DNA from: an uncultured Methanosarcinales archaeon
GTDB taxonomy: Archaea; Nanobdellota; Nanobdellia; Woesearchaeales; GW2011-AR15
Direction of reading: 5' to 3'
Assembly (NCBI GenBank): GCA_964537195.1
Contig: CAZHYZ010000001.1
Location: 5,522-69,521 of the forward strand
DNA: 64,000 nucleotides
The translations under genes were made by a program, and so were the position numbers. Shown here piece after piece: positions 4,287 to 61,245 of the stretch (positions are counted from its first letter, which is position 1; the number at the start of each line of letters is the position of its first letter). The notes below the pieces were generated by a model. That model worked only from the letters and a program-made list of their open reading frames with translations, searched no databases and was not told the origin of the DNA.

Positions 4287-4625
4287 TTAGAAAAAATCTT
4301 TCAAATATCCTGTAAATGTTAATAAAACTATCAAAACCGTAGTGATAAAAAAGACAAATTTAGCTAAGGGAATTTTGAATACAACATCAATTAAGACATA
4401 TACTGCAGCATAACTTAAACCTGCAAGATGTGATAGAACGTATTTCTCAACAAAATTTATTTTTAATCTTATAATCAAAGGCAAAAAGGGCAAATAAACA
4501 AAAAACATGTATGTTAATGTTAGCACAAAACTGGCAACAAAACTATTTAATAACAAACTTATAATGAATACAGAGGCAAAACCAATTACAACACACTTAA
4601 ACAATTCTTTAATTTTATCTTCCAT
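4287..4625 (-). CDS. Small integral membrane protein
   Basis: 112 aa, three hydrophobic helices; overlaps the neighbouring gene by about 10 nt. Confidence 0.3.
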   Translation of the reverse strand: MEDKIKELFKCVVIGFASVFIISLLLNSFVASFVLTLTYMFFVYLPFLPLIIRLKINFVEKYVLSHLAGLSYAAVYVLIDVVFKIPLAKFVFFITTVLIVLLTFTGYLKDFF

Positions 4626-6360: not shown

Positions 6361-7078
6361 ATTTTCCCATTAAGTCGTTGTATCTGATTTTTAACAAGTC
6401 TAAGAACATGAGTGCAGAATCTTTTATTAATTTTACTTTTGTTTCTCCATCATTAAACCAGCTTACCCCTAGTTCTTTTATCTTTAATTTGTTTTTTCTT
6501 GCGATATGCAATATCTCCACATCAAAACCAAACCCAAACAAAGTCTGTTTTTTGAATACTGCGAAACATTTTTTTCTATCAAACAGTTTAAAGCCACATT
6601 GTGTGTCTTTTATGTCTTGTTTCATAATTACTCTTACAACAAAAGGAAACATGTTCCCTGCAAAAATTCTCCATACGGGTTGCTTCTCAACTACCTGAGC
6701 ATTATCTGCTTTTCTTGAAGCTATCACAATGTCATATTCTGGGAGAAACTTTTCAAATTTATCCAATTCTTCTATTGGTGTGCTCAAATCAGCATCAGTA
6801 AATAGTACATAATCACCTCTACTTTTTAAAAACCCCCTTCTTACAGAATATCCTTTTCCCATGTTTTTTTCATTATTTATCAACTTTATTTTCTTGTTGT
6901 TGATGTCTTCTACTTCTCTCACTGTTTTGTCTTTAGAACCATCATTTACAACAAGAAGCTCATATTGTATTTTCCTTTTATTAAGATATTTGGTTATTTT
7001 CTTAATTGAATGGGTTATTCTGTTTTCTTCATTATAAGCAGGAATAACTATGGAGAGAAAGTTTATCTTTTTCATCAA
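6344..7078 (-). CDS. GT2 polyprenol/dolichol-phosphate glycosyltransferase (Dpm1/AglD/ArnC-like)
   Basis: LSIVIPAYNEE, VVNDGSKDKT and TDADLS motifs (DxD), about 240 aa, soluble GT-A fold. Confidence 0.75.
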   Translation of the reverse strand: MMKKINFLSIVIPAYNEENRITHSIKKITKYLNKRKIQYELLVVNDGSKDKTVREVEDINNKKIKLINNEKNMGKGYSVRRGFLKSRGDYVLFTDADLSTPIEELDKFEKFLPEYDIVIASRKADNAQVVEKQPVWRIFAGNMFPFVVRVIMKQDIKDTQCGFKLFDRKKCFAVFKKQTLFGFGFDVEILHIARKNKLKIKELGVSWFNDGETKVKLIKDSALMFLDLLKIRYNDLMGKYETKN

Positions 7079-38948: not shown

Positions 38949-39800
38949 TTGAACAGTAAACAAGCAGCATTAATTGTTGTATTAGCACTTTTTCTAGTTT
39001 TTCCTGTATCAGCAGAAATTATTGTTAACACAGGAGAAAATGTTGAATTAGATTCAGGATATGGAAAAGAGATTAATGTCAAACATTCTTTTGAAGTAAA
39101 TAAATATTATTCACAGTATCAAGAAGGAGAATTACAGATAATAATGATAGAACCAATAGTTTCAGAAGCAAGCATTATGCAGTGTAGAAAAGCAAACTTC
39201 TCATTTAAATTGACAAATATAGCTCCAACAGAGCAGTTATATAGTTTTAGAGTTGAAAATTTTGATGGATTAGCATATATAACTCCAAATTTAAAACTTA
39301 ACCCAGGAAATATTGCACAGGTAAGATACATATTGCAACCAAATTGCAATTCTTCAGGAATATTAACACCCGAGATTGTTGTTGAGACATCTTCAAAAAA
39401 GGCAATTGTGCCAGTAGTATTAACAGTAAACAAGACAAAGCAAGAAGTAATTGATGAGACCAAGTGTGAGACACATTTTAACTCCACTGTTTGTGATTCA
39501 AATTACTATATAAGGTTCTATGAGGACACAAAGTATGAATTAGATTTATCAGAAATGTTCTATGACCCAGATGAAGACGAATTAGAATTTGGATATTCAA
39601 ATGGATTTAATATAAATATTAAATTAAGAGATAATAAAGCAACCTTACTTCCTCAGAAAAATTGGTATGGTACAGAAGAAATCATCTTTACTGCAGAGGA
39701 TGGAAGAGGAGGCTATGCTCAATCTAAAAATTTCTTTATACATGTTATTGATAGAGAAGAAATTTCTTTTTTTCAATGGTTGTCTAACTTATTTGGTTAA
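38949..39800 (+). CDS. Secreted protein (hypothetical; surface-protein cluster member)
   Basis: Signal peptide (LIVVLALFLVFPVSA), beta-rich sequence. Confidence 0.5.
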   Translation: MNSKQAALIVVLALFLVFPVSAEIIVNTGENVELDSGYGKEINVKHSFEVNKYYSQYQEGELQIIMIEPIVSEASIMQCRKANFSFKLTNIAPTEQLYSFRVENFDGLAYITPNLKLNPGNIAQVRYILQPNCNSSGILTPEIVVETSSKKAIVPVVLTVNKTKQEVIDETKCETHFNSTVCDSNYYIRFYEDTKYELDLSEMFYDPDEDELEFGYSNGFNINIKLRDNKATLLPQKNWYGTEEIIFTAEDGRGGYAQSKNFFIHVIDREEISFFQWLSNLFG

Positions 39801-40923
39801 CAGCATATAAAAACAACCCAGAACTCCAAGCAAAAGGTTGTTCTGCTTTGTATATAATTCTTTTAACAGGCAGTCCTTTCTTATCATACACTTCATAGAC
39901 ACCATTATGTTTTACTATAATGTCAGCAATTTTTTCTAACATTTCTTTAGCTTCTTTTTTCATTTCAACTCGATATTTTGCTAAAGCATTAATACTTCCT
40001 AGCCAAAGCCAGGATAATCCATTATGGTAGTCACCCAGACCCACTAATCTTATTTGTTCTGAGATTAATCTTTTTGGATACACAGGATGAACACATTGAG
40101 AGGGAACATCATGGATGTCAAAAAGGTGTGCTGCCTCTTCAACATGTTTTTTGTTTTCTTTGTCAGCAATATCCCACAAAACACCTAAGAAATTACCATC
40201 ACTTGAAAAATAACTGTATATCTTTTCTTTGTGAATCCAGTCTATATAGTGTTCTCCATTCCAGAAAATTTCATTTATCTTTTCTTTTACTTTTTCATAT
40301 AAGCTCAAATATTTCTTCTGTTTGTTTTTGTCTTTTAATAACCTAAATAATTCAGAGATGCAGAACAAAGAATAACAATGACAGACATTAGTATATAGAA
40401 CTTTACCTTGTTTTTTTACACTATCTGTCCAGTTGCAAAATTTTTCTTCTTCGATTAGGAGATCCTTATCTGTATGACCCAAATTCCAGGCAACAATATT
40501 CTCTATTTTATGTATGTTGTCTTTTAAGAGTTTCTTATCTTTTGTTTTCTTTAGATATTCATATAGAGTTATTATAAAGAGAGAGTTCTGGTCTTTTGGA
40601 AAAGCTTTAGATTTGTCTATATGATATATTGGTTTTCTTTTGCTATCTTTTGATTTAAATCCGAGATAAGACAAAACAACACCAAAAGAAGTCTTTCCAA
40701 CTCTTAAAGGTATCTGGCCTGCCTTGACATTTTCTAAGAAAAGTTCTAGATTCTTTTTTACAATATTTTTATCATTAATTGCTAAGCTTCCTAAACTCGC
40801 AAAGAAAGAATCTCTTGCCCAATAATCTTTAAAATGATTTGTTCCAGCAAAAATACCTTTTTTGCCATAACATGCTTTTAGATCTCTTTTGGCGATTTCT
40901 TTTGCTTTTTCTAAGTTGCTCAT
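39784..40923 (-). CDS. Glycoside hydrolase-like protein ((alpha/alpha)6-barrel, amylo-alpha-1,6-glucosidase/GDE-C-like)
   Basis: N-terminal YWARDSFFASLGSLAIND and HNGLSWLWLGS segments resemble the GDE_C / GH15-like (alpha/alpha)6 hydrolase families. Confidence 0.4.
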   Translation of the reverse strand: MSNLEKAKEIAKRDLKACYGKKGIFAGTNHFKDYWARDSFFASLGSLAINDKNIVKKNLELFLENVKAGQIPLRVGKTSFGVVLSYLGFKSKDSKRKPIYHIDKSKAFPKDQNSLFIITLYEYLKKTKDKKLLKDNIHKIENIVAWNLGHTDKDLLIEEEKFCNWTDSVKKQGKVLYTNVCHCYSLFCISELFRLLKDKNKQKKYLSLYEKVKEKINEIFWNGEHYIDWIHKEKIYSYFSSDGNFLGVLWDIADKENKKHVEEAAHLFDIHDVPSQCVHPVYPKRLISEQIRLVGLGDYHNGLSWLWLGSINALAKYRVEMKKEAKEMLEKIADIIVKHNGVYEVYDKKGLPVKRIIYKAEQPFAWSSGLFLYAVNQIS

Positions 40924-42861: not shown

Positions 42862-44538
42862 TTATTTATCTTTATCGATTATATAGTCAGGGACGATGAT
42901 GAAATCAATATCTTCTCTCTGAAAATAATTTATTTTTTCTTTTAACTCCTTATCCAATATATCAATCTCAGATGAGTTGTAGGGATTAAATTTTTTCCAA
43001 GCTTGTTTTATGGGGTAAATAACAACTACGGGATTATTATGTTTTGTTTGTCTGACAAGTGAATTCACATACTTAACATAGTCTTCCATATGTATCCATA
43101 AATTTTTGTTTTGAAAGAAGAAGTTTGGAGGATAATCTTCCTTTTGGATGTCTCTCTCTGTGCTGTAGAAAAATGCATGTGGAACAATTATATCTATCCC
43201 ATTCTGATTCAGCCAGTTAGTTACTTCTTTAACCCCGTCATATGTAATGTTGTTTCCATATCCTCCAAAAGTTTCTGTTAATGTGTATGGTTTATTGTAG
43301 ATTCTTTTTGCAGAAGACGCGATATTTGGAGTAATTCTTTTTTCATCAAATTTGGCTATATCATCTGTACCCAAAACATCAAAATATTTCAGGTGAGCAA
43401 ACAAATCTCCTTCTGCAGACACAACACCATATAGATTTTCTTCATTTAGCAAATGTCCCGTTAATAAAGTGTTATGAGAAGAAGTCCAATTATGTAATGT
43501 CTGAAAATAACTCTTAGAGTATCTCTCTGTCAACACTTCAAAATAATCTGCTTTTATTTTTTCAGAAATCTCGTTTTCATCGACCCAGATATAATTAATA
43601 TAATCTCTCATATCATATTCTTTTTTTCCCTCAAATATCTCTTCAAATGAATCTGTCCAGGGAATTGCTCCCTCTTCATCATAATTATAAGAGCTATAGA
43701 ATCCAGGCTCATCTGTAAAAAATCCTACAACAGTATTGCCGAAATAATTACAGAATCTCGTATAATACTCTTCATGGGTGATTTCAATAAACTTGGAGCC
43801 AGTCCTTGGGTTTAATACATCGACATATTTGTCTTTGGAATATTCAGTTTCAAAATGTGAAAAATCTTGATAAAAAATATATTTAGTAATCTTGTCCTCT
43901 ATCAAAGAGAAATCACATGACAAATCAGAACAGTATCTGTTTTTAACATTTCTGGTAGAATTATCTTTTGGAACAATTACGGAGACAATTTTTCTTACTG
44001 GATATTCCTGGCTTTGTATTAGTGTGAAATTCTTCTCTTTTATTTTTATTCTTTTCAAGTTTTTTGCAATTAATTCTGGGTCTTGATCAAGTACTTTGTC
44101 TTTGGCTCTTCCACTTGGCCAATCAATATCATCATAAATCCAAACTTTCATATCTCTTTTTTTCAGTTCTTTAAGTGCATGACCTACAAAATAAAACCAT
44201 TCTTCTGATAAATACTCTTGTTCAAGACCTATTCTTGCGTGTATTATTACTTCTTTTATACCCACAGAAGCCATTAATTGTATTTGTCTGGTAATTTCAT
44301 TTTTTGTTAGATTTCCGTTCCAAAACCAGAAAGGTATTATTTTTGAGGGAGTATAGTTCATAGAAACCACCAGTTCCTGGCTTTTGTTTGATTGATAATC
44401 AGATAACTTAAGATCTTTGTATCTAAGAGTTGTATTTTCTTTTGTATTTATTTTAAAATGATATATGTTTATTATCAGAATGAGGATTATAAATAGATAA
44501 ACTCCTAAGAAGAACGTCTTGTATCTTTTTTGTATCAT
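42862..44538 (-). CDS. Membrane-anchored extracellular protein, putative glycoside-hydrolase-like TIM barrel
   Basis: N-terminal TM anchor, 558 aa; KEVIIHARIGLEQEY and VWIYDDIDWPSG segments suggest a GH-like (beta/alpha)8 fold; the assignment is tentative. Confidence 0.3.
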   Translation of the reverse strand: MIQKRYKTFFLGVYLFIILILIINIYHFKINTKENTTLRYKDLKLSDYQSNKSQELVVSMNYTPSKIIPFWFWNGNLTKNEITRQIQLMASVGIKEVIIHARIGLEQEYLSEEWFYFVGHALKELKKRDMKVWIYDDIDWPSGRAKDKVLDQDPELIAKNLKRIKIKEKNFTLIQSQEYPVRKIVSVIVPKDNSTRNVKNRYCSDLSCDFSLIEDKITKYIFYQDFSHFETEYSKDKYVDVLNPRTGSKFIEITHEEYYTRFCNYFGNTVVGFFTDEPGFYSSYNYDEEGAIPWTDSFEEIFEGKKEYDMRDYINYIWVDENEISEKIKADYFEVLTERYSKSYFQTLHNWTSSHNTLLTGHLLNEENLYGVVSAEGDLFAHLKYFDVLGTDDIAKFDEKRITPNIASSAKRIYNKPYTLTETFGGYGNNITYDGVKEVTNWLNQNGIDIIVPHAFFYSTERDIQKEDYPPNFFFQNKNLWIHMEDYVKYVNSLVRQTKHNNPVVVIYPIKQAWKKFNPYNSSEIDILDKELKEKINYFQREDIDFIIVPDYIIDKDK

Positions 44539-46440: not shown

Positions 46441-47808
46441 TTATATTCTCTCTTTAAAATCGCAACTTCCTGAGAGTGGTTTATTGGGGTTGTTCATCTT
46501 ATCAATTAATTTACTTTTTAGTCTTTTTACAACCTCTTCTCTTTCAAAAAATAGGTTGTTTTTTTCTTCAGAATCATTTTCCAGATCAAACAATTCACTC
46601 TTATCATCTATTATAAAGCATTTTGATGATACACGTTCAATATCCGCAATATACTTCCAGTTGTCTTCTATTAATGCAATCTTCTCACCATATAATTCAC
46701 TAATAATTACTTTATTTTTATTTTCAATATGGTTTTCCCCCCCTAACATCATTTCTTTAAGAGAGGTTCCTTGAATATACTTGGGAGATTCTAACCCTAT
46801 CAAATCTAATGTTGTTGGTAATATGTCCAGAGAACTTACCCTTATTTTTACTCTCCTTTTTTGACCCTTTGGAACATAGATTATTAATGGAACCTTTATT
46901 ACTTCATCATATAATGTAATCCCGTGTCCTATGCGTTTGTGTTCATAGAATTCTTGTCCGTGGTCACCAGTTAGTATTATTATTGTGTTGTCTAAAATTC
47001 CTTTTTCTTGTAACTTATCAATAAACATCCCAAACTTCTTATCCATTTCATATAGTTCTGCATCATATAATGTTTTAAAATATTCCATGTTTTCTTTATT
47101 CATATCAAGAAACCCAAACTTTCCAGCTAAATAATTACTCTCTTTTGTTAGATTTTTATCGAACAATTCAATGGTTTCTGGTTGTGGAGAATATGGAGAA
47201 TGAAGTTTGTAAGAGTGGAGAAACATAAAAAACTTTTCTGAGTTGTTGTAATTATCTATTAGGTAAAAAGCATTTTTCCAGTAGTTTTCTTCTTTTTCAT
47301 AAGATTTTTCATAACTCTGAGAAGAGTTGCTGTATGAACTGTAAAATTCATCAAAACCCCTTTCAAAACCCCTTTCAAGATTTAAAAATTCGAGCCAGAG
47401 CGGCGCCACCCAAATATTTTTGTAGTCTTTTTCTTTTAACAACTCAGGTAGAGTATAGATTTCATTTGATAAAGTTGAATCTTGGCTGACATTGTACAAT
47501 TTGTGATAAGAAGGCACAACAGAAGTGAAGATAGACATCTGACTTGGCAAAGTCCAGGAGGATGTTGAATATACATCTTCAAATAAAGTGGATTTCTCAG
47601 CAAATTTGTCAATATTTGGTGTTGTGTTTCTAGGATATCCATAGGTGCCAAGGTGGTCGGATCTCAATGTAGTAATAGATATTAGGATTATATTACAATC
47701 TTTACAGTCTGTTTCGTTTTGTATTTCTGATAATGAATAGAGAATTCCTAAAGCAATTAGACTAGCAAAAATAAAAAAAACAACAAACTTTTTCTTTTTA
47801 TCTAGCAT
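46441..47808 (-). CDS. Sulfatase-like hydrolase/transferase (alkaline phosphatase superfamily)
   Basis: Signal-anchor; ILISITTLRSDHLGTYGY N-terminal metal-binding motif and the TGDHG motif typical of sulfatases/LTA-synthase-like enzymes. Confidence 0.7.
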   Translation of the reverse strand: MLDKKKKFVVFFIFASLIALGILYSLSEIQNETDCKDCNIILISITTLRSDHLGTYGYPRNTTPNIDKFAEKSTLFEDVYSTSSWTLPSQMSIFTSVVPSYHKLYNVSQDSTLSNEIYTLPELLKEKDYKNIWVAPLWLEFLNLERGFERGFDEFYSSYSNSSQSYEKSYEKEENYWKNAFYLIDNYNNSEKFFMFLHSYKLHSPYSPQPETIELFDKNLTKESNYLAGKFGFLDMNKENMEYFKTLYDAELYEMDKKFGMFIDKLQEKGILDNTIIILTGDHGQEFYEHKRIGHGITLYDEVIKVPLIIYVPKGQKRRVKIRVSSLDILPTTLDLIGLESPKYIQGTSLKEMMLGGENHIENKNKVIISELYGEKIALIEDNWKYIADIERVSSKCFIIDDKSELFDLENDSEEKNNLFFEREEVVKRLKSKLIDKMNNPNKPLSGSCDFKERI

Positions 47809-47812
47809 TTTT

Positions 47813-48415
47813 CTAGTAAATACAAACAGTTTCCAACATTATTGATTCATAATCTTTTATTTCTTCCTTAAGAGGAAGAAACATTTCAATAACATATATT
47901 GAATTGTCACATTGTTTATAGTATAAAATACTTCTGAATTCTATTAAATCCCAGGAACATGCACCATATGTGTATCTGTTTGTTGCATACAATAAAAAAT
48001 AATTGAATGGTAAATTCAATTTTTCTTTAGGAAGAAAGGATTTATCACAAGATATTGTTTGTGAGATTCTTCCAGGATAAGGTGAGGGCACTTCTTTGTA
48101 TAATGATAGTAAAATTTTTCTTTCTTCATTTATGAAATAAATTATTTCTGTCTGATTTAGATTATTTATTCTTTTAATCCTTATTGTGGTGTTTTTCCCT
48201 TTTCCTGTGAAAAGATCATAGTTTTGATGATTGATGAATTCAAAATCTATCTCTTTTATTATTTCATTCTCTATACCAAGGCTTCTTTGATTTGGAAATA
48301 ATTTAATTATTATAACAAAAAAAATAGAAAGAAAAAGAACCAAACAAAAAAATTTGTAGAGCGATATTTTATTTTTTCCCATATTATTTAAATATTTCTC
48401 TGAGGATTTTACCAT
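47813..48415 (-). CDS. Small signal-anchored protein, paralogue of 50442-50972 (partner protein A)
   Basis: Shares PSPYPGRIS, YGACSWDL and SILYY motifs with the 50442-50972 protein; lies immediately downstream of the PDE gene with an overlap. Confidence 0.4.
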   Translation of the reverse strand: MVKSSEKYLNNMGKNKISLYKFFCLVLFLSIFFVIIIKLFPNQRSLGIENEIIKEIDFEFINHQNYDLFTGKGKNTTIRIKRINNLNQTEIIYFINEERKILLSLYKEVPSPYPGRISQTISCDKSFLPKEKLNLPFNYFLLYATNRYTYGACSWDLIEFRSILYYKQCDNSIYVIEMFLPLKEEIKDYESIMLETVCIY

Positions 48416-50399
48416 CTACATCATTTGGACTTTCAATATTTAGCAAGTGTAGAATGGTTGGATATTGATCTACATGTTCAATTGGTTTACTCAATTCATA
48501 ACCTTCTTTTATTCCCGACCCTGCTATGATGAAAGGGGACCACATTCCTTTTGTTTCATTTGCAAAGATAGCCTGTTTGTAACCGGTTTTTAATGGTGTG
48601 TCAAATATTTTCCTGTCTTCTGTCATTTCCTCATTCCAACCATAGCCTGCCTCGTTTGCAATAATCAAATCTCCGACACGATCTTTTGGCAAATCAAGAT
48701 ATTCACTTACGTCTTCCCATTTTACAACTGCCCTGACAGGATTCTCGCCGGTTTCTGGATCTTCAATATCCCTTAAGCTGTTTATCACTTCTTGTCTGAG
48801 TTTCTCATATTCTTCTCCAGATGCTCTTGTCCAGTTTCCATCCAATCCCTCTGGATCAATATAGATGTTGTCCATTTTTAGATATATTACTTGGCTATTT
48901 TTCCAGTCAATTATTGGTTCTCCTGTTGTTGGATCAATTTCAAAATCTAACCATCCTTTCTCAGCAAAAAAATTGTTTAATCTCACCCATTTATTTAGTG
49001 GAACTGCTCCATGATCAGAACTGAAAACGATAATTGTGTTCTCATCAGAAACTTTGAGAATTTCTCCAACCATCTTGTCTAACTCTTTATACATATCTTT
49101 TACTTCTTTCCAGAGTTCTTCCCTTGTTTGATTATCTACTTCATTGTATCTCTTGCTAACAGGATCAATATATCCAAGCCACCACCTGCTTGTTAGCATT
49201 TGGTTTGGTGAATATATGTCATGTATTATTACATCAGGATTGTAGGTTTCATCTACAAAAGAAATTTCCTTGGTGTGCCAATCAAAAGACATGTTCATTT
49301 CTTCTAGAAACGTTTTCTTGTCCTCCGGATAATATATTAATTGTGGCGGGAAATTATCTACAAAATCAACCATAGGCCCCAGGTTCTCATTAAACTCAGT
49401 TCTAACAGAAGAAGGTTTCACATTATATTCATTTAGGTTGTTGTAGAAGAGTCTTATTCTAAAAAAGCCATCATCTTCCAATTTGATTATGTTTATTATT
49501 ACGTGTGTGTCTACATCAAGTGAGTTCCAATTAAGAACCAAGGGATTCCATTCACTCCACTCTCCCTGTTCTAAAACGGCCCATTTGTTTCTTTTATCAG
49601 GAGAGAATAAGATTTTATTGTAATTCTCAGACTCATCATTTGTACTGTCATATACATATCCATAAATTTTTTCTCCCCAACCAGAAAGTTCTATCTCAAA
49701 AGGTGGAGAATACGACTTTGGATTCAAAGTCCAATTTTTTGGCTCATTAGTTTTAATATATCTTGTGAGCTCAGGACCAAAAAAGAACAACCTAGAACCT
49801 CGTCCCTGTTTTTTTCTCTGGCTTAAATTCGATTCATATTCAAAGTTAATAGCATGAAAATCTGCCCCCCAACCACCCCATCTTCCTCTGATTGTCATTC
49901 CTTTGTCTAACTCAGGGGGCGTAGATCCGGGCATTGATAATAAAGCAACATTTAAATCATTTTTTTCTAGAGTTGTCCATATTGGTTCATTTTTCTTTGC
50001 TACAGAAGAAAATCCTGCTACTGAAACTTTATTTAATGGTGCACCTTCAACGTGCATGGGCCCATCTGCTACCCCATGTTTTTCAGGATATGTGCCTGTT
50101 AATAGTGTAGCGAAGTTTGTTGGAGTGTGGCTTGGAAAAGTCGGAATAGAATAACCATATGATCCTTTTTCCATTAATTTTTTTATATTAGGTAATTCCC
50201 CGGCCTCGGCCCACTCGAACAACTTAAATAAATCCGGATCTGCCCTCACACCATCCGGAATGAACCAGTATAGTTTTAATGATTTATCTTTTTCAATTTT
50301 TTTTTCTGAGTTTATAGTGCAAGAAACACCAAATATTAAAATAAAAATGAGAGACACAAAAATAACATTTTTTTTATTCAATTTATACACCCCAATCAA
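48384..50399 (-). CDS. Type I phosphodiesterase / nucleotide pyrophosphatase family (alkaline phosphatase superfamily), secreted
   Basis: Signal-anchor; PTFPSHTPTNFATLLTGTYPEKHG matches the Phosphodiest family metal/nucleophile motif; 671 aa. Confidence 0.65.
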   Translation of the reverse strand: MIGVYKLNKKNVIFVSLIFILIFGVSCTINSEKKIEKDKSLKLYWFIPDGVRADPDLFKLFEWAEAGELPNIKKLMEKGSYGYSIPTFPSHTPTNFATLLTGTYPEKHGVADGPMHVEGAPLNKVSVAGFSSVAKKNEPIWTTLEKNDLNVALLSMPGSTPPELDKGMTIRGRWGGWGADFHAINFEYESNLSQRKKQGRGSRLFFFGPELTRYIKTNEPKNWTLNPKSYSPPFEIELSGWGEKIYGYVYDSTNDESENYNKILFSPDKRNKWAVLEQGEWSEWNPLVLNWNSLDVDTHVIINIIKLEDDGFFRIRLFYNNLNEYNVKPSSVRTEFNENLGPMVDFVDNFPPQLIYYPEDKKTFLEEMNMSFDWHTKEISFVDETYNPDVIIHDIYSPNQMLTSRWWLGYIDPVSKRYNEVDNQTREELWKEVKDMYKELDKMVGEILKVSDENTIIVFSSDHGAVPLNKWVRLNNFFAEKGWLDFEIDPTTGEPIIDWKNSQVIYLKMDNIYIDPEGLDGNWTRASGEEYEKLRQEVINSLRDIEDPETGENPVRAVVKWEDVSEYLDLPKDRVGDLIIANEAGYGWNEEMTEDRKIFDTPLKTGYKQAIFANETKGMWSPFIIAGSGIKEGYELSKPIEHVDQYPTILHLLNIESPNDVDGKILREIFK

Positions 50400-50441
50400 A
50401 GGAAAGAAACACTTTATTTAAATTATTATCTTTCTTTTTCT

Positions 50442-50972
50442 CTATGAAACAAACTTACATCCTAGATTTTCTAGATATCTAAATTTTTCTGTGGTATTTT
50501 CTTTTAATGCAAAAAAATATTTCATTTCAATCAAATCTTCTCCGCATTTATGATAATATAGTATTGAACTGTAATTTATCAAATCCCAAGAGCAAGCCCC
50601 ATAGGTGAATCTTTCAGTCGCGTAGACAACATAGTAGTTTGAAATGTTGTTCTTTAAAGGTTTAAATTCTTTTCTACATTCTCTTAGATTGGAAATTCTT
50701 CCCGGATAGGGAGAAGGGGTTGTGTCATATAATGAATATAATATTAATAGACTATCGGATATGAACTCATCTGAAAAATCGCTATAGTTATAGTAAATAT
50801 TAATATCAATTCTTTCATCATCTTTTTTGGCAACTATATGTTTTCCATCTTTTAAATCATATTCTTCTTTTGAGAACTCTTTAGGGCCAGAATCTTTCTG
50901 ACAGGAAACCAAATTGAACATTAATAGTAAAAGAACAATTATAATCATTATAGGGTATTTTTTAATATACAT
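50442..50972 (-). CDS. Small signal-anchored protein, paralogue of 47813-48415 (partner protein B)
   Basis: Conserved PSPYPGRIS...RFTYGACSWDL...SILYYHKC block; follows the Cys-rich secreted protein gene by 5 nt. Confidence 0.4.
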   Translation of the reverse strand: MYIKKYPIMIIIVLLLLMFNLVSCQKDSGPKEFSKEEYDLKDGKHIVAKKDDERIDINIYYNYSDFSDEFISDSLLILYSLYDTTPSPYPGRISNLRECRKEFKPLKNNISNYYVVYATERFTYGACSWDLINYSSILYYHKCGEDLIEMKYFFALKENTTEKFRYLENLGCKFVS

Positions 50973-50976
50973 TTTT

Positions 50977-52266
50977 TTATTTTGATTTGTTGTTTTGTGT
51001 TTTATTTAACATTTTCTCTTTACATTCTTCTGAGTACTTATCTGGTAGCTTGTCACAAACTTTTGGATCATTATAAAACTCTGACATTAAAATTTCTGTC
51101 AGTAATAAATTATAGCAAAAATTACTATGTTTGTCTTTGAAGGTTGTGCTATTTACAGATATTTCTGAACATTTTTTAACACCTTCCTCAATATCAAGCA
51201 GTAAATATTCACTTAAATAATAAATATACCCAAGTATGCACTCCTCTTTATATTTTTCCGGAAAATCCTCACAAAGCTCGTGTGTGTTCTCCATCCTGTC
51301 CTCAAACCAACCGTGCCTTGCTATTTTAATGAAACATAAGTCAGATAAATTCTTATCTTCTAGGGATTTACAATAGTTAAGATCTATCTTCATGTCTTCA
51401 TTATAGCTTAACATAATACCAAAGATTCCCTCAAAACAAAAATTACGAAACCCAGAGGTATTACACAAAGCAAAGGATTCATTTTTTTTATTTATGTAGT
51501 ATGTTCCGCCTAGTCCCCCATAACAGTCTTTTTTAAATTCTTTGTTTGTTATATTACAAAACAACTCTGTCTTGTTAGATTCTAATAGATAAACAACATG
51601 ATCATGGCATCCAAAATATTTTGAAGTGCTGCTGAGAGTACATAACTCATCAATTATTTTAAGATTAGGTTCTTTTGTTTTAGAAATCTCGTCTGCTAGA
51701 AGGAAAAAACATTCAGACCTCCAATTTTTATCCTTAATTTCAGAACAGAAGTTCTTGTAGTCTTTGATATTTGATTCAATTGAAGACTTGTTCAGACTTA
51801 GGGAGGTCATTACATAATATTGGCACTCACCAGCGAGGGCCTCATTCTCTAAATCACAAATTTCTTTTACCTTAGAAACATTTTTCTTTCCATATTTTAT
51901 TGCTTCAAGAAAGATTGTATGAATCTGATAATAATCTTCTTCCGCACTTATGTTCTTTGTTATAAATTCCACCATGTGAGGTCTATCGATTATTCTATTA
52001 CAGATCCTTTTTATGTATGGGTTCTGAATATATGAAATAGAAACTTCTGCTTCATCCAAGGGACCACTGCTTCTCAATTGAAAGATTAATTTGTCTTTGT
52101 AACACAAATCTTTTTTAAGACCATTTCTTATATCCTGACAATCAAAAGTGAAGGAATTCATTGTATTATTAATGGTGTTGTCTAGATTAGGATTATTGCA
52201 GGAGTTAATTAAAAACAGGATTAACGCCATAAATATAACTGTGGTCTTTTTATTAAGATTAATCAT
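50977..52266 (-). CDS. Secreted Cys-rich protein (hypothetical)
   Basis: Signal peptide then regularly spaced Cys pairs along its 429 aa; no family recognised. Confidence 0.4.
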   Translation of the reverse strand: MINLNKKTTVIFMALILFLINSCNNPNLDNTINNTMNSFTFDCQDIRNGLKKDLCYKDKLIFQLRSSGPLDEAEVSISYIQNPYIKRICNRIIDRPHMVEFITKNISAEEDYYQIHTIFLEAIKYGKKNVSKVKEICDLENEALAGECQYYVMTSLSLNKSSIESNIKDYKNFCSEIKDKNWRSECFFLLADEISKTKEPNLKIIDELCTLSSTSKYFGCHDHVVYLLESNKTELFCNITNKEFKKDCYGGLGGTYYINKKNESFALCNTSGFRNFCFEGIFGIMLSYNEDMKIDLNYCKSLEDKNLSDLCFIKIARHGWFEDRMENTHELCEDFPEKYKEECILGYIYYLSEYLLLDIEEGVKKCSEISVNSTTFKDKHSNFCYNLLLTEILMSEFYNDPKVCDKLPDKYSEECKEKMLNKTQNNKSK

Positions 52267-52306: not shown

Positions 52307-52759
52307 ATGACAAACCATTCAAAGAAAGAAATTTATATAACTCTTCTATTACTATTTATTTATATGAAAAGATATACCAAAGAACAACTGATTTTTTACC
52401 TTCAGAAATTAGCTAAGAAACTAAAGGCTACCCCCACAACAAAAGAGATGGATAGTTATAAGAAATTTCCTTCCTCTGGAACCTATTATGTGAGGTTTGG
52501 TTCGTGGAATAAAGCACTAAAAAAAGCGGGACTAAAACTCAATATTAAAACGAAATATACGAAAGAAGAACTTAAAGAGAATCTTAGATTACTTACCAAA
52601 GAACTTGGTCGCGTTCCAAAATCATCAGATTTAAAAAATAAGAAATGGGCAGCTTCCTACGCCACATACAGAAAATACTTCGGGAGCTGGAAAAAAGCAC
52701 TGAGAGCAGCAAAACTAAACCAACTTAGTTTCATTAATCTTAAATCTTTCTCCAAATAA
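52307..52759 (+). CDS. Tandem-repeat protein (two approximately 50-aa repeats; resembles the archaeal homing-endonuclease-associated repeat)
   Basis: Repeat 1 YTKEQLIFYLQKLAKKLKATPTTKEMD...YYVRFGSWNKALKKAGL and repeat 2 YTKEELKENLRLLTKELGRVPKSSDL...YRKYFGSWKKALRAAKL. Confidence 0.45.
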   Translation: MTNHSKKEIYITLLLLFIYMKRYTKEQLIFYLQKLAKKLKATPTTKEMDSYKKFPSSGTYYVRFGSWNKALKKAGLKLNIKTKYTKEELKENLRLLTKELGRVPKSSDLKNKKWAASYATYRKYFGSWKKALRAAKLNQLSFINLKSFSK

Positions 52760-54799: not shown

Positions 54800-54883
54800 G
54801 CCCTCATAGCTCAGCGGTAGAGCGACAGTCTCGTAACTAGCCAAGAAAACTGTAGGTCGGGAGTTCAACTCTCTCTGAGGGCT
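54800..54883 (+). tRNA. tRNA-Thr(CGU) with a 12-nt intron at the canonical position
   Basis: Acceptor GCCCUCA/UGAGGGC plus discriminator U; D-stem GCUC/GAGC; anticodon stem ACAGU/ACUGU, loop CUCGUAA; T-arm GGGAG-UUCAACU-CUCUC; intron ACTAGCCAAGAA at 54836-54847. Confidence 0.75.
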
Positions 54884-55329: not shown

Positions 55330-55917
55330 GTGTGCTTTCTTTTTTGGATGGCGGTAAAGAAAATCCCTATGCAGAGAATCCGTGAGCAATACAAGAAGTT
55401 AAATATAGATAGAAGATGGTTTCTTCTGCTATTTGTCTTGCTTGTTTTATCTTTTTTCATTAATATATGGCCATTTGTTTTTTTGATGTTGTTTAGTGTA
55501 GCAAATGCTTTACTGCTTTCTATTGATAGATATGTGCAAGCCCCACTTGATTTAGAGTTTTCAACATTCTCTGCTGTCTTGATGACAATGGAATATAATG
55601 TTAAGTGGGGAATTGCTGCAGCAATATTGACAAAAATAGCAGGCATAATTTATAATAGAAATGTTAGGATGGATCACTTGTTTATGGTTATTGGTTATAT
55701 TATAGCAGCAATTACTGCAAGCCTTTTTTCTGGGATGGGTGTTGCTTCAGTAGGGATTATCTCAACGTTAGTTGTTAATCTTTATATTGTGTTTGTTTCT
55801 AGATTTATTACAATGCTTTCTACATATGAGATTATTATGTATGGTAGCTCAAACACAATCTTTAACATAGTTCTTTTTATTGGGTTTGGAGATCTCTTTA
55901 GAATATTAATGTTTTAG
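55330..55917 (+). CDS. Integral membrane protein, tandem paralogue 1
   Basis: Shares RW.FLL.FV...SFFI..WP..FL.LFSV.N..LLS..RY..AP.D.E.STFSA.LMT with the next gene; 5-6 TM helices. Confidence 0.45.
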   Translation: MCFLFWMAVKKIPMQRIREQYKKLNIDRRWFLLLFVLLVLSFFINIWPFVFLMLFSVANALLLSIDRYVQAPLDLEFSTFSAVLMTMEYNVKWGIAAAILTKIAGIIYNRNVRMDHLFMVIGYIIAAITASLFSGMGVASVGIISTLVVNLYIVFVSRFITMLSTYEIIMYGSSNTIFNIVLFIGFGDLFRILMF

Positions 55918-55952: not shown

Positions 55953-56516
55953 ATGTCTAGAAAAAAAAGTTCTCCAAGCAAAAAGAGACATCTGAAATTC
56001 AAAGTAGATAAAAAGTGGCTCTTTCTTGGATTATTTGTGTGGATAATTTCTTTTTTCATTGATGTGTGGCCAATTATTTTTTTAACTTTTTTTTCTGTAT
56101 TGAATTCAATGATGCTTTCTTTTAAGAGGTATTTTGACGCCCCTGCGGATATAGAACTATCAACTTTTTCCGCTATCTTAATGACTAATCAGTATGGTCT
56201 TACATATGGCATTATAACAGCAATCGTCACAAAGCTTGTTTCCATGTTGTATATTAAAGTGATAAAAGTAAATTATTTTTTCATGATGACATCCTATGTT
56301 GTGGCTGCAATATTGGCAGAAGTATTCTCAGGAATGAATATAGTTACTCTGGGTTTACTTGTTACAGGTTTATCAAATATATATGTAAGTTTTGTAAGAA
56401 AGTTTGTAGTCCAATATTCTACTTTTGAGATAATATCTTATGGACTTACTAATATTATATTTAATGTTGTTATGTTTGTTGGGTTTGCTGAATTAGTATT
56501 GAAAATCATGATATAA
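55953..56516 (+). CDS. Integral membrane protein, tandem paralogue 2
   Basis: Collinear similarity to the 55330-55917 product over its whole length. Confidence 0.45.
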   Translation: MSRKKSSPSKKRHLKFKVDKKWLFLGLFVWIISFFIDVWPIIFLTFFSVLNSMMLSFKRYFDAPADIELSTFSAILMTNQYGLTYGIITAIVTKLVSMLYIKVIKVNYFFMMTSYVVAAILAEVFSGMNIVTLGLLVTGLSNIYVSFVRKFVVQYSTFEIISYGLTNIIFNVVMFVGFAELVLKIMI

Positions 56517-56545: not shown

Positions 56546-57136
56546 ATGACACATTATTACTCAGAAAAACAAAATTCTGAAGTTAGCTTAAAAAAAATTC
56601 ATATAGGAGTTAAGGGATTAAGTTTTGATATATTTACTGCTCAAGGAGTTTTTTCAAAAGATAAGCTGGACAAAGGTACGAAGACACTTATTGAAAATTG
56701 TGTTATTGAAAAAGATTGGTCTGTATTGGACATGGGTTCTGGTTATGGTGTTGTGGGGATTTCTATAAAGAAATTATTTCCTTCTGTTAAGGTTGTTATG
56801 GCAGACATAAATGAAAGGGCAGTTATGCTTTGTAAGAAAAATATCAAGTTGCACAAATTGAAAGAAGTAAGAGCTATTAAAAGTGATATATATTCTGAAA
56901 TAGAAGGAGACTTTAATACAGTCTTAGTGAATCCTCCCCAGACAGCAGGTAAAGAGATTTGTTTTAGCATTATTGAGGGTGCTAAAAAACATCTTTTTGA
57001 AAGGGGATTGTTGCAATTAGTTGCAAGACACAGAAAAGGTGGTGTATCTTTAGAAAAAAAGATGAAAGAAGTCTTCGGAAATGTTGATACAATTGCTAAA
57101 TCTGGCGGATACAGAGTTTATGTTAGTAAGAGGTAA
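56546..57136 (+). CDS. Class I SAM-dependent methyltransferase (RsmC/RlmG small-domain type)
   Basis: VLDMGSGYGVVGI SAM-binding motif I and the LVNPP catalytic motif (NPPF/H-like). Confidence 0.75.
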   Translation: MTHYYSEKQNSEVSLKKIHIGVKGLSFDIFTAQGVFSKDKLDKGTKTLIENCVIEKDWSVLDMGSGYGVVGISIKKLFPSVKVVMADINERAVMLCKKNIKLHKLKEVRAIKSDIYSEIEGDFNTVLVNPPQTAGKEICFSIIEGAKKHLFERGLLQLVARHRKGGVSLEKKMKEVFGNVDTIAKSGGYRVYVSKR

Positions 57137-57171: not shown

Positions 57172-60100
57172 ATGAAATCCACAAAAAAATCTCAGATATC
57201 TTTATTTCTTATAGTGGGCTTGGTTTTGTTATTAGTTGTGTCCCTATTTGTAGTTGTAAGAATAAATATGAAGCGAGCAGATGTACAACAAGTTAAACAA
57301 GAAAGTATTACTTTTCAAAATCTTGAAGAAGATGCAGGATTGTATGTTGAAGATTGTATTGAGCAATCTGTTTTTGAGGGTATAGAGAATTATGGTCTTG
57401 ATTCACCAGGCATTCTTGAAGTATATGTAGGTGAACAGATTATGATTTGTACAGATGAGTTTAAGATATATGAGAACATAGCAGAGATATCTGAGGAAGA
57501 ACCAGTTGTCAATGTTGAGATTAATGACGATATAATTAATTTTAATATAGATTATCCAGTAATTTTTTCAAAAGGCGAAGAACAATTCAGATTAAAAAAA
57601 TTCAGCTATAGTTTTAGGACTAACACCTTAATTGATTCTGACGGCGGCATAATTGAAGAAGGCACAGTATATACAACAGAAGATGGAAGATTGAATCTTT
57701 ATTTTTCTGACGATACTACAGTAACAAAAGACGGTGATAGTGTTGATGCTATTAGTTTGAATGTTGAGGACGAACATATAAATGGATTGTCTAACGCTGT
57801 TGTGATAGGTTCTGTTTTATATGAAGGATTGCCTCATGGAGCAAAATTTAATCCTGCCATTGAGGTTACAGTTGAGCTTGATGAAGAAGACATTCAAGGT
57901 CTAGATACTTCTGCATTGAAATTAGCATATTATGATGATGATGCAGATTTGTGGATAACATATCCTAGTTACTTTGATGAAGAAAACATGGTTGTTCGTG
58001 GTAAAGTTGATCATTTCTCTTTGATATCCGTATCAATGTGTGGTTCAAGCGTGGATGGACAAGCTACAATGCAAATGAGTACAGGAGAGAAGACCTTTCC
58101 TATGGAGTTTATTTTTAAAGATCCTTTTTTAGATGGAGAAGACAACGGATGTAATCCAACCCATTGGATGTATAACTCTCTAGAGGATGACGAACACGGC
58201 AGTTATGGTTTTCATTTGTTGCCTGAATTCATGTCTTCTTTTGAATGCGAGTATGATAATTATGATATGACTACTTACTATTATGGAGAAGAATTTCCTG
58301 TGGATGTATGTGATTTAAACTCTGAACATATAAGGGACTGGGATAATGATGATGATCCTGCTTATGAATTTGGTGTTGGAGAAATTAAGATTTCTTTTTC
58401 AGGTATAGAAAACCCTCAAGAATTTACACTTTTTGCAGAAATGTCATCTGATCAAAGTAAGGAAGTTTATACCTATTTGGAAAATAAATGTGTTTCTGCT
58501 GCAAGTGCTTTTGCAAAAGAAAAGATTAAAGAAAAGTTTGACTGGGTTACAGACGACTTAATTAGTGGAGATGGAATTAGAGACGGAGCAACCCTACATT
58601 GTACAGCAGACCTTAGTGGAACAGAAGGAGACACTCTTGATTCCTTTATGGGCAGGGTTGCTATTGGAAGTATTGGAGTGCAATTTAATGAAGGAAGTAT
58701 AACAGATAATTTAGAAAATCCTGATTCTATTTGTTGGGGTGGAGGAAAATGTTCACCAGTCCAGACAATAGAAGATTATGGTGATGGAGTTCCCCTTGTT
58801 CCTGGGGCTACAAAAACCAGATTAGGTTTCTTTGCAACTCCAAAAACATTTGGGTTTGCATTTGAGCAACAAGAGCCATTTCAAGTGCTAACTACTTATG
58901 AAGATATTGGAGCAATAAAAGATGATGTTGACCAAACTTTTCATCCTTTGCTTGGAGAAGGAGAATTCACTTTTTATCTGAGAACTGGAGGAGATGCATG
59001 TGTTAGTTATGAACCTAGTGGATTAGGTTGTTGTGTTAACTCACAACAAGTTGGAGATGAAACAGTCATAACTGACTGCCAAGGAAAGCCCGATGAGAAT
59101 GGGTGTCGGGGGGAATTTTTTGATAAAGATTGTCATGAATTGTCTCAGTGTATAGGGAAAACAAATGATTTAGAAGCATTTCTCATACAAGAAGAAGTAG
59201 AAGTTGAGAATTATATTCTTAAAAGTACACCTTCTAACATAATAACTATTGCTTCTCAGGCAGGTTCAACCCCCATTAAAAACACTATTGCTACAGATCT
59301 TCAAAAAACACAAGGAGAAACAGATTTAAGTGTGGCAAATGATGATGAGTACCTTCCTTTAGTTTATGACATGTCCAAAATTGAGGGAAGAGACTGGTCT
59401 TGTTCTGATACTTGTTTATGGACAATAAATGAAGAACCTGGAAAAATATTGAGCGAGACAACTCAGCAAAAAACAAAATCAACACCTGCCTCTCCGGGTA
59501 AATTGAGATCAGGAACAAACACAGTTAAAGTCAGGGTAGCAAACTTAAATGATGTTTGTATGTATGCTCGGGCATTTCTACAATTAAAAGGACAAGGAGT
59601 TACTTTCTTTGATATCTCTGAAGATGTTGATAGACCACTAACAGAAGATGATTGTAAGGCTGTTGATAGTTGTTGGGTAAGTAGACCAAACATAGAAAAC
59701 GGCGGATTTTGTGTAGTTAAGGGAGAGAATAACGGAGGTTATTGTTGTTTTGGTGCAGAAGAGGGCAATTATATGTACCCATATCCACACTTTGAATATT
59801 TTGGTGACCAAGAATGTAAAGCAAATGAAAACGCACGACCAATGGATGAGTTGAGCTGTACCACCCAGGGTGGAAAATGGACAAATGGTTTTTGTGTTAG
59901 AGCCGGAGAATACAATGCAGAATATTGTGTTGTTGGTCCTACAGAAGAGAAGAATTATGTACATTATGAACTTGCAGAGGAAAATATCTGTCCTTGTGAA
60001 GATGGAAGAGAATGTCTTGTTGCCAGTGAGTGTGAGGTTGTGGATGAATATCATTCTGTGAGATGTTCTCAGACAGAGCAAGGAGAGAGAATGTATTGTT

Positions 60101-61245
60101 GTGATAGAAAAGAACCTGAGGAAGAAGTTATTGAAGAAGAACCCGTAGGACAACTAAGTTGTTCAAGTGGTGGAAATGCAATTATAGATGATAACGGAAA
60201 AAGGTTCTCTTACTGTACTTATGGTTGTAATCCAGGTCAAGATGAATGTAAAGATGATTTGATGAGTTGTCAAAATTCTGTTTGTTATTCTGATTGTTCT
60301 ACTAACTGTGATTCACAAGCAGACGATTATACAGATTGTTTGTTCACATGTCAAGAAAATTGTCCAGAATGTTATTCTGAGATTGACTGTGAGAAATTCC
60401 CCAATTATGAAACCACAGAATGGAAATGTGAAGGTAGCCGAGTAGTTCCACAGACATGTGGGGATGGCAATCTTGATCCTAATGAAGAGTGTGATGACGG
60501 CAACAATGATGATGGAGACGGGTGTAATGCAGAATGTATATTAGAATATTGTGGAGACGGCCTTATTAACAATGTTGATGAAGAATGTGATGATGGTGAT
60601 ACTGTTGGTTTAAACGGTTGCTCAGATACTTGCCAAATAGAAGACGGTTGGACATGTGATGAAGAGCCGTCTGTTTGTGTTAAGGAAGAGGTGACTATTT
60701 CAGATGTTCAGAGAGATAAACTTGAAAAGGAATTTCCTGGAACACGCATTGGAAATGCACAAGTCTTATCACAAATGATAACTACTTGTTATGAGTTATA
60801 TTATAGCCAACTTAAATCTGATTTATATGAATGTTTAGATAATTATGCTCCAAATATTGGACAAATTAACCAATTATCTTCAGATGCTTGGCCTTATACT
60901 TTTACTACTTGTGCAGTCTCTGAACCATATTTACAATGTCTCTGTTATGTAAATGCCTTTGGTGTTGCATCAGGCTACGAGGTATCTACAGCTTATGGTC
61001 TTGTTGGAGTAGACAGTAATTTAGAAGAATATACTGGCGAAAGTCAATTAGCAACAGGAAAATATGTTATATTTGGTGATAGTGCTCCAGGCCACATAGC
61101 ATATATTGTTGGTCAAGATAGTGAAGGAGACTATCTTTATACAGATGCCAACTCAAATGATGTTGGTGGAGTAGTTTATGGTGGAAAACTGAAGAATCAT
61201 CCAAGAGGTCAAATAACATATATAAGCAAAGTACCAAGAACTTAA
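57172..61245 (+). CDS. Giant secreted/membrane-anchored Cys-rich protein with DUF4215-like Cys repeats and a C-terminal CHAP-like amidase/peptidase domain
   Basis: N-terminal signal-anchor; 1357 aa and acidic; CGDGNLDPNEECDDGNNDDGDGCNAEC and CGDGLINNVDEECDDGDTVGLNGCSDTC repeats; the C-terminal QCLCYVNAFG (Cys) and GDSAPGHIAYIVGQDSEGDYLYTDANSN (His) match the CHAP pattern. Confidence 0.7.
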   Translation: MKSTKKSQISLFLIVGLVLLLVVSLFVVVRINMKRADVQQVKQESITFQNLEEDAGLYVEDCIEQSVFEGIENYGLDSPGILEVYVGEQIMICTDEFKIYENIAEISEEEPVVNVEINDDIINFNIDYPVIFSKGEEQFRLKKFSYSFRTNTLIDSDGGIIEEGTVYTTEDGRLNLYFSDDTTVTKDGDSVDAISLNVEDEHINGLSNAVVIGSVLYEGLPHGAKFNPAIEVTVELDEEDIQGLDTSALKLAYYDDDADLWITYPSYFDEENMVVRGKVDHFSLISVSMCGSSVDGQATMQMSTGEKTFPMEFIFKDPFLDGEDNGCNPTHWMYNSLEDDEHGSYGFHLLPEFMSSFECEYDNYDMTTYYYGEEFPVDVCDLNSEHIRDWDNDDDPAYEFGVGEIKISFSGIENPQEFTLFAEMSSDQSKEVYTYLENKCVSAASAFAKEKIKEKFDWVTDDLISGDGIRDGATLHCTADLSGTEGDTLDSFMGRVAIGSIGVQFNEGSITDNLENPDSICWGGGKCSPVQTIEDYGDGVPLVPGATKTRLGFFATPKTFGFAFEQQEPFQVLTTYEDIGAIKDDVDQTFHPLLGEGEFTFYLRTGGDACVSYEPSGLGCCVNSQQVGDETVITDCQGKPDENGCRGEFFDKDCHELSQCIGKTNDLEAFLIQEEVEVENYILKSTPSNIITIASQAGSTPIKNTIATDLQKTQGETDLSVANDDEYLPLVYDMSKIEGRDWSCSDTCLWTINEEPGKILSETTQQKTKSTPASPGKLRSGTNTVKVRVANLNDVCMYARAFLQLKGQGVTFFDISEDVDRPLTEDDCKAVDSCWVSRPNIENGGFCVVKGENNGGYCCFGAEEGNYMYPYPHFEYFGDQECKANENARPMDELSCTTQGGKWTNGFCVRAGEYNAEYCVVGPTEEKNYVHYELAEENICPCEDGRECLVASECEVVDEYHSVRCSQTEQGERMYCCDRKEPEEEVIEEEPVGQLSCSSGGNAIIDDNGKRFSYCTYGCNPGQDECKDDLMSCQNSVCYSDCSTNCDSQADDYTDCLFTCQENCPECYSEIDCEKFPNYETTEWKCEGSRVVPQTCGDGNLDPNEECDDGNNDDGDGCNAECILEYCGDGLINNVDEECDDGDTVGLNGCSDTCQIEDGWTCDEEPSVCVKEEVTISDVQRDKLEKEFPGTRIGNAQVLSQMITTCYELYYSQLKSDLYECLDNYAPNIGQINQLSSDAWPYTFTTCAVSEPYLQCLCYVNAFGVASGYEVSTAYGLVGVDSNLEEYTGESQLATGKYVIFGDSAPGHIAYIVGQDSEGDYLYTDANSNDVGGVVYGGKLKNHPRGQITYISKVPRT

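Follow-up and report, generated by a model that had tools for sequence, protein, structure and literature searches.

Five tightly packed open reading frames (ORFs) on the minus strand of a 64-kb stretch of archaeal DNA, the whole of which is referred to here as the window, encode two small proteins interspersed with three large ones, and it is the family of these small proteins and its link to exported enzymes that we address here. Read in the direction of transcription, the ORF listing gives a cysteine-rich repeat protein of 429 aa (50977-52266), small protein 1 of 176 aa (P0001; 50442-50972), an NPP-type phosphodiesterase (PDE) of 671 aa that is assigned by Pfam (48384-50399), small protein 2 of 200 aa, or 189 aa if counted from Met12 (P0002; 47813-48415), which matches the hidden Markov model (HMM) of the family with E 6e-48, and a sulfatase-fold enzyme of the alkaline phosphatase (AP) superfamily of 455 aa, likewise assigned by Pfam (46441-47808). 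All five positions are exactly those given in an earlier note on this DNA. The gene for the cysteine-rich protein is separated by 4 nt from that for P0001, which is followed by a 42-nt gap and the PDE gene; the PDE gene overlaps the P0002 gene by 32 nt, or is separated from it by 1 nt if translation starts at Met12, and a gap of 4 nt precedes the gene for the 455-aa enzyme. The GatE gene lies 52 nt downstream of the cluster. The window has a G+C content of ~32% and contains the archaeal markers GatE (equivalog match, 638 bits), AlaXM, and an ATP-dependent DNA ligase. Because tblastn detected no third copy of the small protein and clustering no further AP-superfamily gene within these 64 kb, both small genes of the window flank both of its AP-superfamily enzymes.

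The small-protein family

The two small proteins are paralogs (52% identity over 91 aa, E 2e-28), as the earlier note had proposed, and the PSPYPGRIS, C.K.F.P, R(F/Y)TYGACSWDLI, and SILYY..C blocks that it had listed are each found in both. P0001 and P0002 are each other's closest relatives and, as judged by sequence comparison, the duplication of the small gene is specific to the lineage of this archaeon. That they belong to no recognizable family was confirmed by searches of Pfam, NCBIfam, and PDB sequences: P0001, P0002, and the cysteine-rich protein have no match in Pfam or NCBIfam, an hmmscan of 122 family members at E ≤ 1 revealed no recurrent Pfam family, and the family profile run against PDB sequences gave only chance matches to TatA (E about 1). 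In a literature search, we found nothing that describes the small-protein family or its association with enzymes.

A word-indexed search had suggested that this family is tiny, retrieving three proteins when started from a single sequence (the two paralogs and P0003) and 35 when started from a profile. This was overturned by an exhaustive profile search covering 1.84 billion cluster representatives (clusters at 50% identity), which retrieved 867 representatives at E ≤ 1e-3, 420 at E ≤ 1e-10, and 18 at E ≤ 1e-30. Members are mostly 180-210 aa long, and tandem duplications of the small domain are present in P0014 and P0080. In tblastn searches against plasmids, neither the PDE nor P0003 gave a match.

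Residue conservation was counted over 184 domain instances and is given here in P0001 numbering. Y89 and G125 are 100% conserved, followed by C172 (99%), P105 (98%), C99 and C127 (97% each), P90 (93%), C143 (90%), Y134 (86%), and R121 (83%), and the conserved loops of the family read SPYPG and RFTYGxC (RFTYGACSWDL in P0001). All four Cys residues (C99, C127, C143, and C172; pattern CCCC) are found in 152 instances, while the patterns CCx-, CCC-, xxx-, and xxCC account for 13, 11, four, and one instance, respectively; the CCC- pattern probably reflects alignment trimming. These patterns of Cys presence and loss suggest that the protein contains two disulfides, C99-C127 and C143-C172. The best-conserved residues are of structural types, i.e., Pro, Gly, Tyr, and the four Cys, and this composition points to a protein that is non-catalytic.

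An N-terminal hydrophobic segment is present in 139 of 143 full-length standalone members, 31 of which have a lipobox-like motif. P0001 has a signal of the lipoprotein type with the canonical lipobox LVSC, and P0002 has a single N-terminal hydrophobic segment (signal anchor). Because such segments are near-universal, we take the family to be exported and membrane-tethered, either through a lipid or through a signal anchor.

The partner enzymes and the cysteine-rich protein

The 671-aa PDE matches Pfam Phosphodiest (2e-32, 113 bits against a cutoff of 23), with a large insertion in the Pfam domain, and has one N-terminal anchor. Its nucleophile motif PSHTPTN aligns with PTKTFPN of ENPP1 and keeps the Thr nucleophile. 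The protein accordingly shows what defines NPP or type I phosphodiesterases, a Phosphodiest match together with a Thr nucleophile (P-x-x-T-x-P-N), and its activity as such is a prediction. It is 53-62% identical to PDEs of ~665 aa that are encoded beside small-family genes in archaeal and Patescibacteria loci (L001, L006-L008, L010, L011, and L014-L016), a conservation across the archaea/bacteria divide that suggests either horizontal transfer or very strong constraint.

The 455-aa enzyme matches Pfam Sulfatase (PF00884; 2e-50, 172 bits against a cutoff of 25) and has the GDHG motif of the AP superfamily in the form LTGDHGQE. It had been described as sulfatase-like in the earlier note. In an alignment with the sulfatase 5g2v, T-L-P-S-Q (SWTLPSQ) replaces the C/S-x-P-x-R of formylglycine sulfatases; the S1 formylglycine-dependent sulfatase signature is absent from the 455-aa enzyme, which is better described as a predicted Thr-nucleophile enzyme of the AP superfamily than as a true sulfatase. 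The same holds more widely, as all 19 partner enzymes compared have Thr, or rarely Ser, at the nucleophile position and lack the Arg of the signature, and most of them share the motif (S/A)WTLPS..S.FTS.YP..H. We considered that the small protein might be a formylglycine maturation factor; this was ruled out, since enzymes with Thr at this position, as the partners are, do not depend on that modification.

At the first metal-ligand position, the 455-aa enzyme has Thr (SITT) in place of Asp/Glu. The replacement defines a subgroup of four enzymes, those encoded at 46441-47808 in the window, L001:1743-3230, L014:100-1752, and L016:2367-4004 (with SITT, SITN, or SLTN), in three of which EHG also replaces DHG. 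These are the four enzymes whose genes abut or overlap a small gene on the same strand, and their metal site may be altered or inactive. A different feature, a CxxC directly before the first core strand, is found in the Thr-type sulfatase-like enzymes, e.g., as CKDC-N-I-I-L-I-S in the window (residues 35-38), and is also present in partner enzymes of L001, L007, L008, and L010 and in the fusion proteins P0057, P0098, and P0150.

In hydropathy scans, each partner enzyme showed one hydrophobic segment, at its N-terminus, and no polytopic N-terminal membrane domain of the LtaS/EptA type was detected. Since every partner enzyme thus brings an anchor of its own, we ruled out that the small protein serves as the membrane anchor of a soluble enzyme, and the anchor role that had been among the earlier suggestions is unlikely.

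The cysteine-rich protein has 22 regularly spaced Cys residues and a lipobox-like INSC (LINSC). It consists of about nine repeats of ~31-40 aa, each with a Cys pair at a spacing of 9-18, mostly 9-12, residues, and its longer homologs have the motif C..(I/V)P..F(R/K)..CF.GLG..IG. This family is sparse in the indexed database. The homologs at L004:5327-6922, L006:4318-4915, and L007:4414-5964, as well as P0187 (L018), are each encoded directly downstream of a small-family gene, and altogether all five members of the family that were found adjoin such a gene, one of them having come from an independent search seeded with the cysteine-rich protein. The pairing of the cysteine-rich and small proteins in the window is, therefore, real.

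Genomic linkage and fusions

Neighborhoods were taken from family members that were picked solely by how long the contig was or that were found by pattern search; the latter used a 7-sequence alignment and gave two loci each from genome and metagenome contigs. To label ORFs, we used the family HMM together with jackhmmer profiles that had been started from the two enzymes of the window. The resulting sample comprises 16 non-redundant loci from archaea and Patescibacteria with 19 family genes. An AP-superfamily gene lies directly beside 15 of these 19 genes, and all 19 have a gene for a PDE, a sulfatase-like enzyme, or a cysteine-rich protein at most two genes away, the sulfatase-like neighbor in L020 being only a 135-aa fragment with a weak Pfam match. 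Given the adjacency in 16 independent loci and the sulfatase-fold fusions described below, the link between the small proteins and exported enzymes is general and no local accident of the window.

The pairs are arranged in several ways. The small gene precedes the PDE gene in the window, L001, and L005, and the two genes are convergent in the Patescibacteria loci L008, L010, L011, and L015 and also in L007. A sulfatase-like gene is followed by an overlapping small gene in L014 and L016 (4 nt) and also in L007, and by a small gene after a 5-nt gap in L005, while the small gene comes before the sulfatase-like gene in the window and in L001, where the two overlap by 4 nt. The short overlaps in L014, L016, and L001 are consistent with translational coupling. 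The cysteine-rich gene follows the small gene with an overlap of 10-13 nt in L004, L006, and L007 and after a gap of 23 nt in L018.

L001 is the locus most closely related to the window. In it, P0003 is encoded directly before a PDE that is 54% identical to that of the window, and a second, divergent family member (1159-1746, HMM E 5e-18) directly before the sulfatase-like gene. Because of this parallel arrangement, gene order identifies the conserved pairs in the lineage of the archaeon as the 176-aa protein followed by the PDE and the 200-aa protein followed by the sulfatase-like enzyme, which is the reverse of the register in the earlier note. The latter had placed each small gene 3' of a large one; with both small genes of L001 preceding their enzyme genes, convergent pairs in Patescibacteria, and a variable order elsewhere, no such fixed register exists.

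Fusion proteins extend the linkage. In a Pfam scan of ten long family matches, a Sulfatase domain is followed by the small domain in P0052, P0057, P0098, and P0150, the small domain is followed by a Sulfatase domain in P0087, P0114, and P0047 (partial), and an NMT1/THI5-like domain is followed by the small domain in P0143. The seven sulfatase fusions have, by hydropathy, at most one membrane segment, which is N-terminal, and no internal one, so both fused domains are expected on the same, extracytoplasmic side of the membrane. We ruled out that the fusions are gene-calling artifacts, because the downstream domain lacks a signal or anchor of its own in both orders. Together, fusions and adjacency argue strongly that the small domain and the sulfatase-fold enzyme function jointly, and they support the idea, put forward in the earlier note, of a dedicated partner of secreted hydrolases.

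Other genes recur in these neighborhoods. A gene for a B12-binding radical SAM protein lies directly upstream of a small-family gene in two archaeal loci (L001:1-1086 and L004:3371-4735), and genes for NMT1/THI5-like (solute-binding-type) proteins are found at L014:2335-4636, L016:1234-2343 and 4586-6875, L017:611-1480, and L020:991-1854 and 4733-5428. In L014 and L016, NMT1-like genes and genes for GH43/32-like beta-propeller proteins lie between the small gene and the PDE gene; the window contains neither an NMT1/THI5-like nor a GH43/32-like propeller gene. The recurrence of NMT1-like, GH43/32-like propeller, B12-binding radical SAM, and sulfotransferase neighbors hints at a larger cell-surface module.

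Fold of the small domain

An AlphaFold2 model built with a 3-sequence alignment was poor (pLDDT 61.6), while the model built with a 122-sequence alignment reached a pLDDT of 92.3 and a pTM of 0.78, and only the latter was used in the fold search. It consists of a transmembrane helix, three strands, a long helix, a loop region with the conserved motifs, four strands, and a C-terminal helix. The fold relatives, with their listed figures, are 3lyd, PA0094 (1tu1), and cyanobacterial PsbP (8.2 each), DcrB (7.9), TiME and the PknH sensor domain (7.8 each), TplEi (7.6), SciW (7.3), Mog1 (7.1), LpqN (6.4), and Tsi3 (6.0), at sequence identities of 4-11%. In Foldseek, PsbP was the top match, which was not significant (E 0.016). 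The model has the alpha/beta/alpha sandwich of the Mog1/PsbP-like superfamily, with a central antiparallel sheet and helices on both sides, and no profile match was found to the Pfam families of this fold (PsbP, DcrB/DUF1795, and Lpp-LpqN). The predicted structure thus shows the small domain to have a Mog1/PsbP-like fold and to constitute a new sequence family within it. Nearly all relatives with this fold lack catalytic activity and serve in cell envelopes as binding, accessory, chaperone, or immunity proteins.

Discussion

Altogether, we tentatively favor a model whereby the small protein assists co-encoded cell-surface proteins as an accessory subunit or assembly factor, without being a catalyst itself. 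In this model, all components would be exported separately by way of their own N-terminal signals, and the small protein would then dock on the catalytic domain of the enzyme at the outer face of the membrane, using the conserved and probably disulfide-stapled loop face (SPYPG...C / RFTYGxC). Once docked, it would act as a holoenzyme subunit or assembly factor that stabilizes the enzyme or positions it at the membrane surface. The partners served in this way would be the ~665-aa NPP-type PDE, the Thr-nucleophile sulfatase-fold enzymes, and the cysteine-rich repeat protein, and the duplication in the lineage of the archaeon would have provided each of its two enzymes with a small-protein copy of its own. 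What the sequence data show are the paralogy, family size, fold, export signals, genomic linkage, and fusions; physical binding to the partners, absence of catalysis, pairing of the Cys residues, and the biochemical pathway are inferred. A chaperone-like or accessory function is the best remaining reading, while the roles of anchor and immunity protein raised in the earlier note are unlikely.

Several points weigh against this model. In the same loci, the small protein has changed much more rapidly than the PDE (22-37% versus 53-62% identity), and the genomic context comes from 16 loci only, when the family clusters number in the hundreds. The genes differ in order and orientation between loci, and co-transcription is not universal because the small gene and the PDE gene are convergent in four Patescibacteria loci. 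Nor are copy numbers 1:1, with L008 and L010 each having one small gene and three enzymes. Finally, one conserved face for the PDE, sulfatase-like, and cysteine-rich folds would be easier to explain by a common ligand than by a common protein interface.

The main rival to an accessory subunit follows this last point: the small protein might bind not the enzymes but their shared substrate or product, such as a phospho- or sulfo-ester head group or a membrane lipid, and present the substrate or pass the product on, in the manner of a carbohydrate-binding module or a lipid-binding lipoprotein. The loop residues Y89, G125, R121, Y124, and D130 are invariant whichever partner adjoins, the domain can be fused to either end of the enzyme, which is typical of binding modules, neither orientation nor stoichiometry is fixed, an NMT1/THI5-like solute-binding-type protein occurs in one fusion and several adjacencies, and some of the fold relatives (the PknH sensor, LpqN, and TP0453) bind ligands or lipids. 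However, the conserved residues are mostly of structural types (Pro, Gly, Cys, Tyr), and tight overlaps with enzyme genes are typical of the subunits of a complex; on balance, we consider ligand binding unlikely, if a serious contender.

A more loosely connected function is improbable. Here the small protein would perform its own, distinct step in a common cell-envelope process, or be an enzyme itself, and would be co-inherited with AP-superfamily genes without direct cooperation. The variable orientation, the other conserved neighbors (NMT1-like, GH43/32-like propeller, B12 radical SAM, and sulfotransferases), and the invariant Y89 and near-invariant R121 would all agree with this, but the repeated fusions are specifically to the sulfatase-fold domain, no catalytic-looking triad or set of metal ligands is conserved, and none of the top fold relatives has a known enzymatic role, aside from kinase lobes that were partially matched at lower ranks. 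Least credible of all, despite the precedents for it within the fold, is that the small protein is an inhibitor or immunity protein which, as in Tle/Tli and Tse3/Tsi3, keeps the active site of potentially self-damaging AP-superfamily enzymes that cleave membrane lipids covered until these are deployed, because fusions combine it with the enzyme in a single polypeptide, in either order, the enzymes are membrane-anchored and outnumber the small genes in several loci, a cysteine-rich protein that is not an enzyme is a further partner of the small gene, and in the sampled loci the neighbors are housekeeping or envelope genes with no secreted effector and no toxin or secretion-system genes found nearby.

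Comparison with known systems helps to place an accessory subunit of this kind. The small family shares its fold with PsbP and CyanoP, the extrinsic subunits of photosystem II; it differs from them in sequence, being only 5-11% identical, in that none of the 122 family members matches the Pfam models of that fold, in its four conserved Cys residues and its SPYPG and RFTYGxC loops, and in its partners, which are AP-superfamily esterases of non-photosynthetic archaea and Patescibacteria. With the envelope lipoproteins and effector chaperones of the DcrB/DUF1795/PA0094-EagT6/SciW group, it has no sequence-profile relationship and no type VI secretion system (T6SS) context in common, its partners are membrane-anchored enzymes and not secreted effectors, and partner fusions occur. 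The immunity proteins of the same fold that act against T6SS lipases and amidases (TplEi, Tsi3) are a poor fit, as the small family has fusions in cis, a non-enzyme partner, and no toxin-delivery context. The mycobacterial PknH extracellular sensor domain and LpqN-type lipoproteins lack sequence similarity to the small family, come from other organisms, and are set apart by the lack of a kinase or MmpL partner here. In our reading, these are Mog1/PsbP-like accessory proteins that form a new family and pair with partners of a new class.

The partner enzymes, in turn, resemble LtaS and EptA (MCR-1) in having the sulfatase fold, a Thr nucleophile instead of formylglycine, and an extracytoplasmic, membrane-tethered catalytic domain. 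Unlike LtaS and EptA, they have a single N-terminal anchor and no polytopic lipid-binding membrane domain, and they carry the conserved CxxC before the core; moreover, the sequence of the 455-aa enzyme is closer to S1 sulfatases (1.8e-23) than to the lipoteichoic acid primase of the LtaS family, 4uop (5e-12). It is tempting to speculate, in what we regard as a distinctly long shot, that the small PsbP-like protein and the single-anchor Thr-nucleophile enzymes are a split, two-component equivalent of the polytopic LtaS/EptA-type enzymes, in which the lipoprotein would extract or present phospholipid head groups or phosphodiester polymers of a host envelope, and that ultra-small episymbionts (DPANN-like archaea and Patescibacteria) horizontally share this toolkit for scavenging or remodeling the lipids and phosphate of their hosts. 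The 53-62% identity of the PDE across the archaea/bacteria divide would fit such sharing.

Elsewhere in the window, several features stand apart from the cluster. Divergent from it, a 150-aa protein encoded at 52307-52759 (plus strand) is made up of a pair of "homing endonuclease associated repeat" units (Pfam HNH_repeat, 1.7e-36). An 84-nt tRNA at 54800-54883 (plus strand) is recognized by Rfam (59 bits) and is given no anticodon by ARAGORN; it may have an intron or an atypical anticodon loop. Two tandem genes at 55330-55917 and 55953-56516 (plus strand) encode paralogous polytopic membrane proteins of 195 and 187 aa without a Pfam match, and are followed by a gene for a small-domain methyltransferase (MTS) at 56546-57136. 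A 1357-aa ORF at 57172-61245 (plus strand) has no Pfam match at E ≤ 1e-3. Downstream of the cluster on the minus strand lie genes for two putative glycoside hydrolases, one just beyond it at 42862-44538 with a weak GH106-like match (1.4e-7) and one at 39784-40923 that resembles GH116/GDE_C.

With this work, an unnamed and widespread protein family gains a fold, a cellular location, and a testable link to two types of exported AP-superfamily enzymes. These enzymes are themselves uncharacterized and are unusually conserved between uncultivated archaea and Patescibacteria, organisms in which little is understood of surface biochemistry and of the acquisition of nutrients or lipids. Should the small protein prove to be a required subunit, it would have to be supplied when the enzymes are expressed heterologously and assayed, and the family would become annotatable across thousands of metagenomic genomes.

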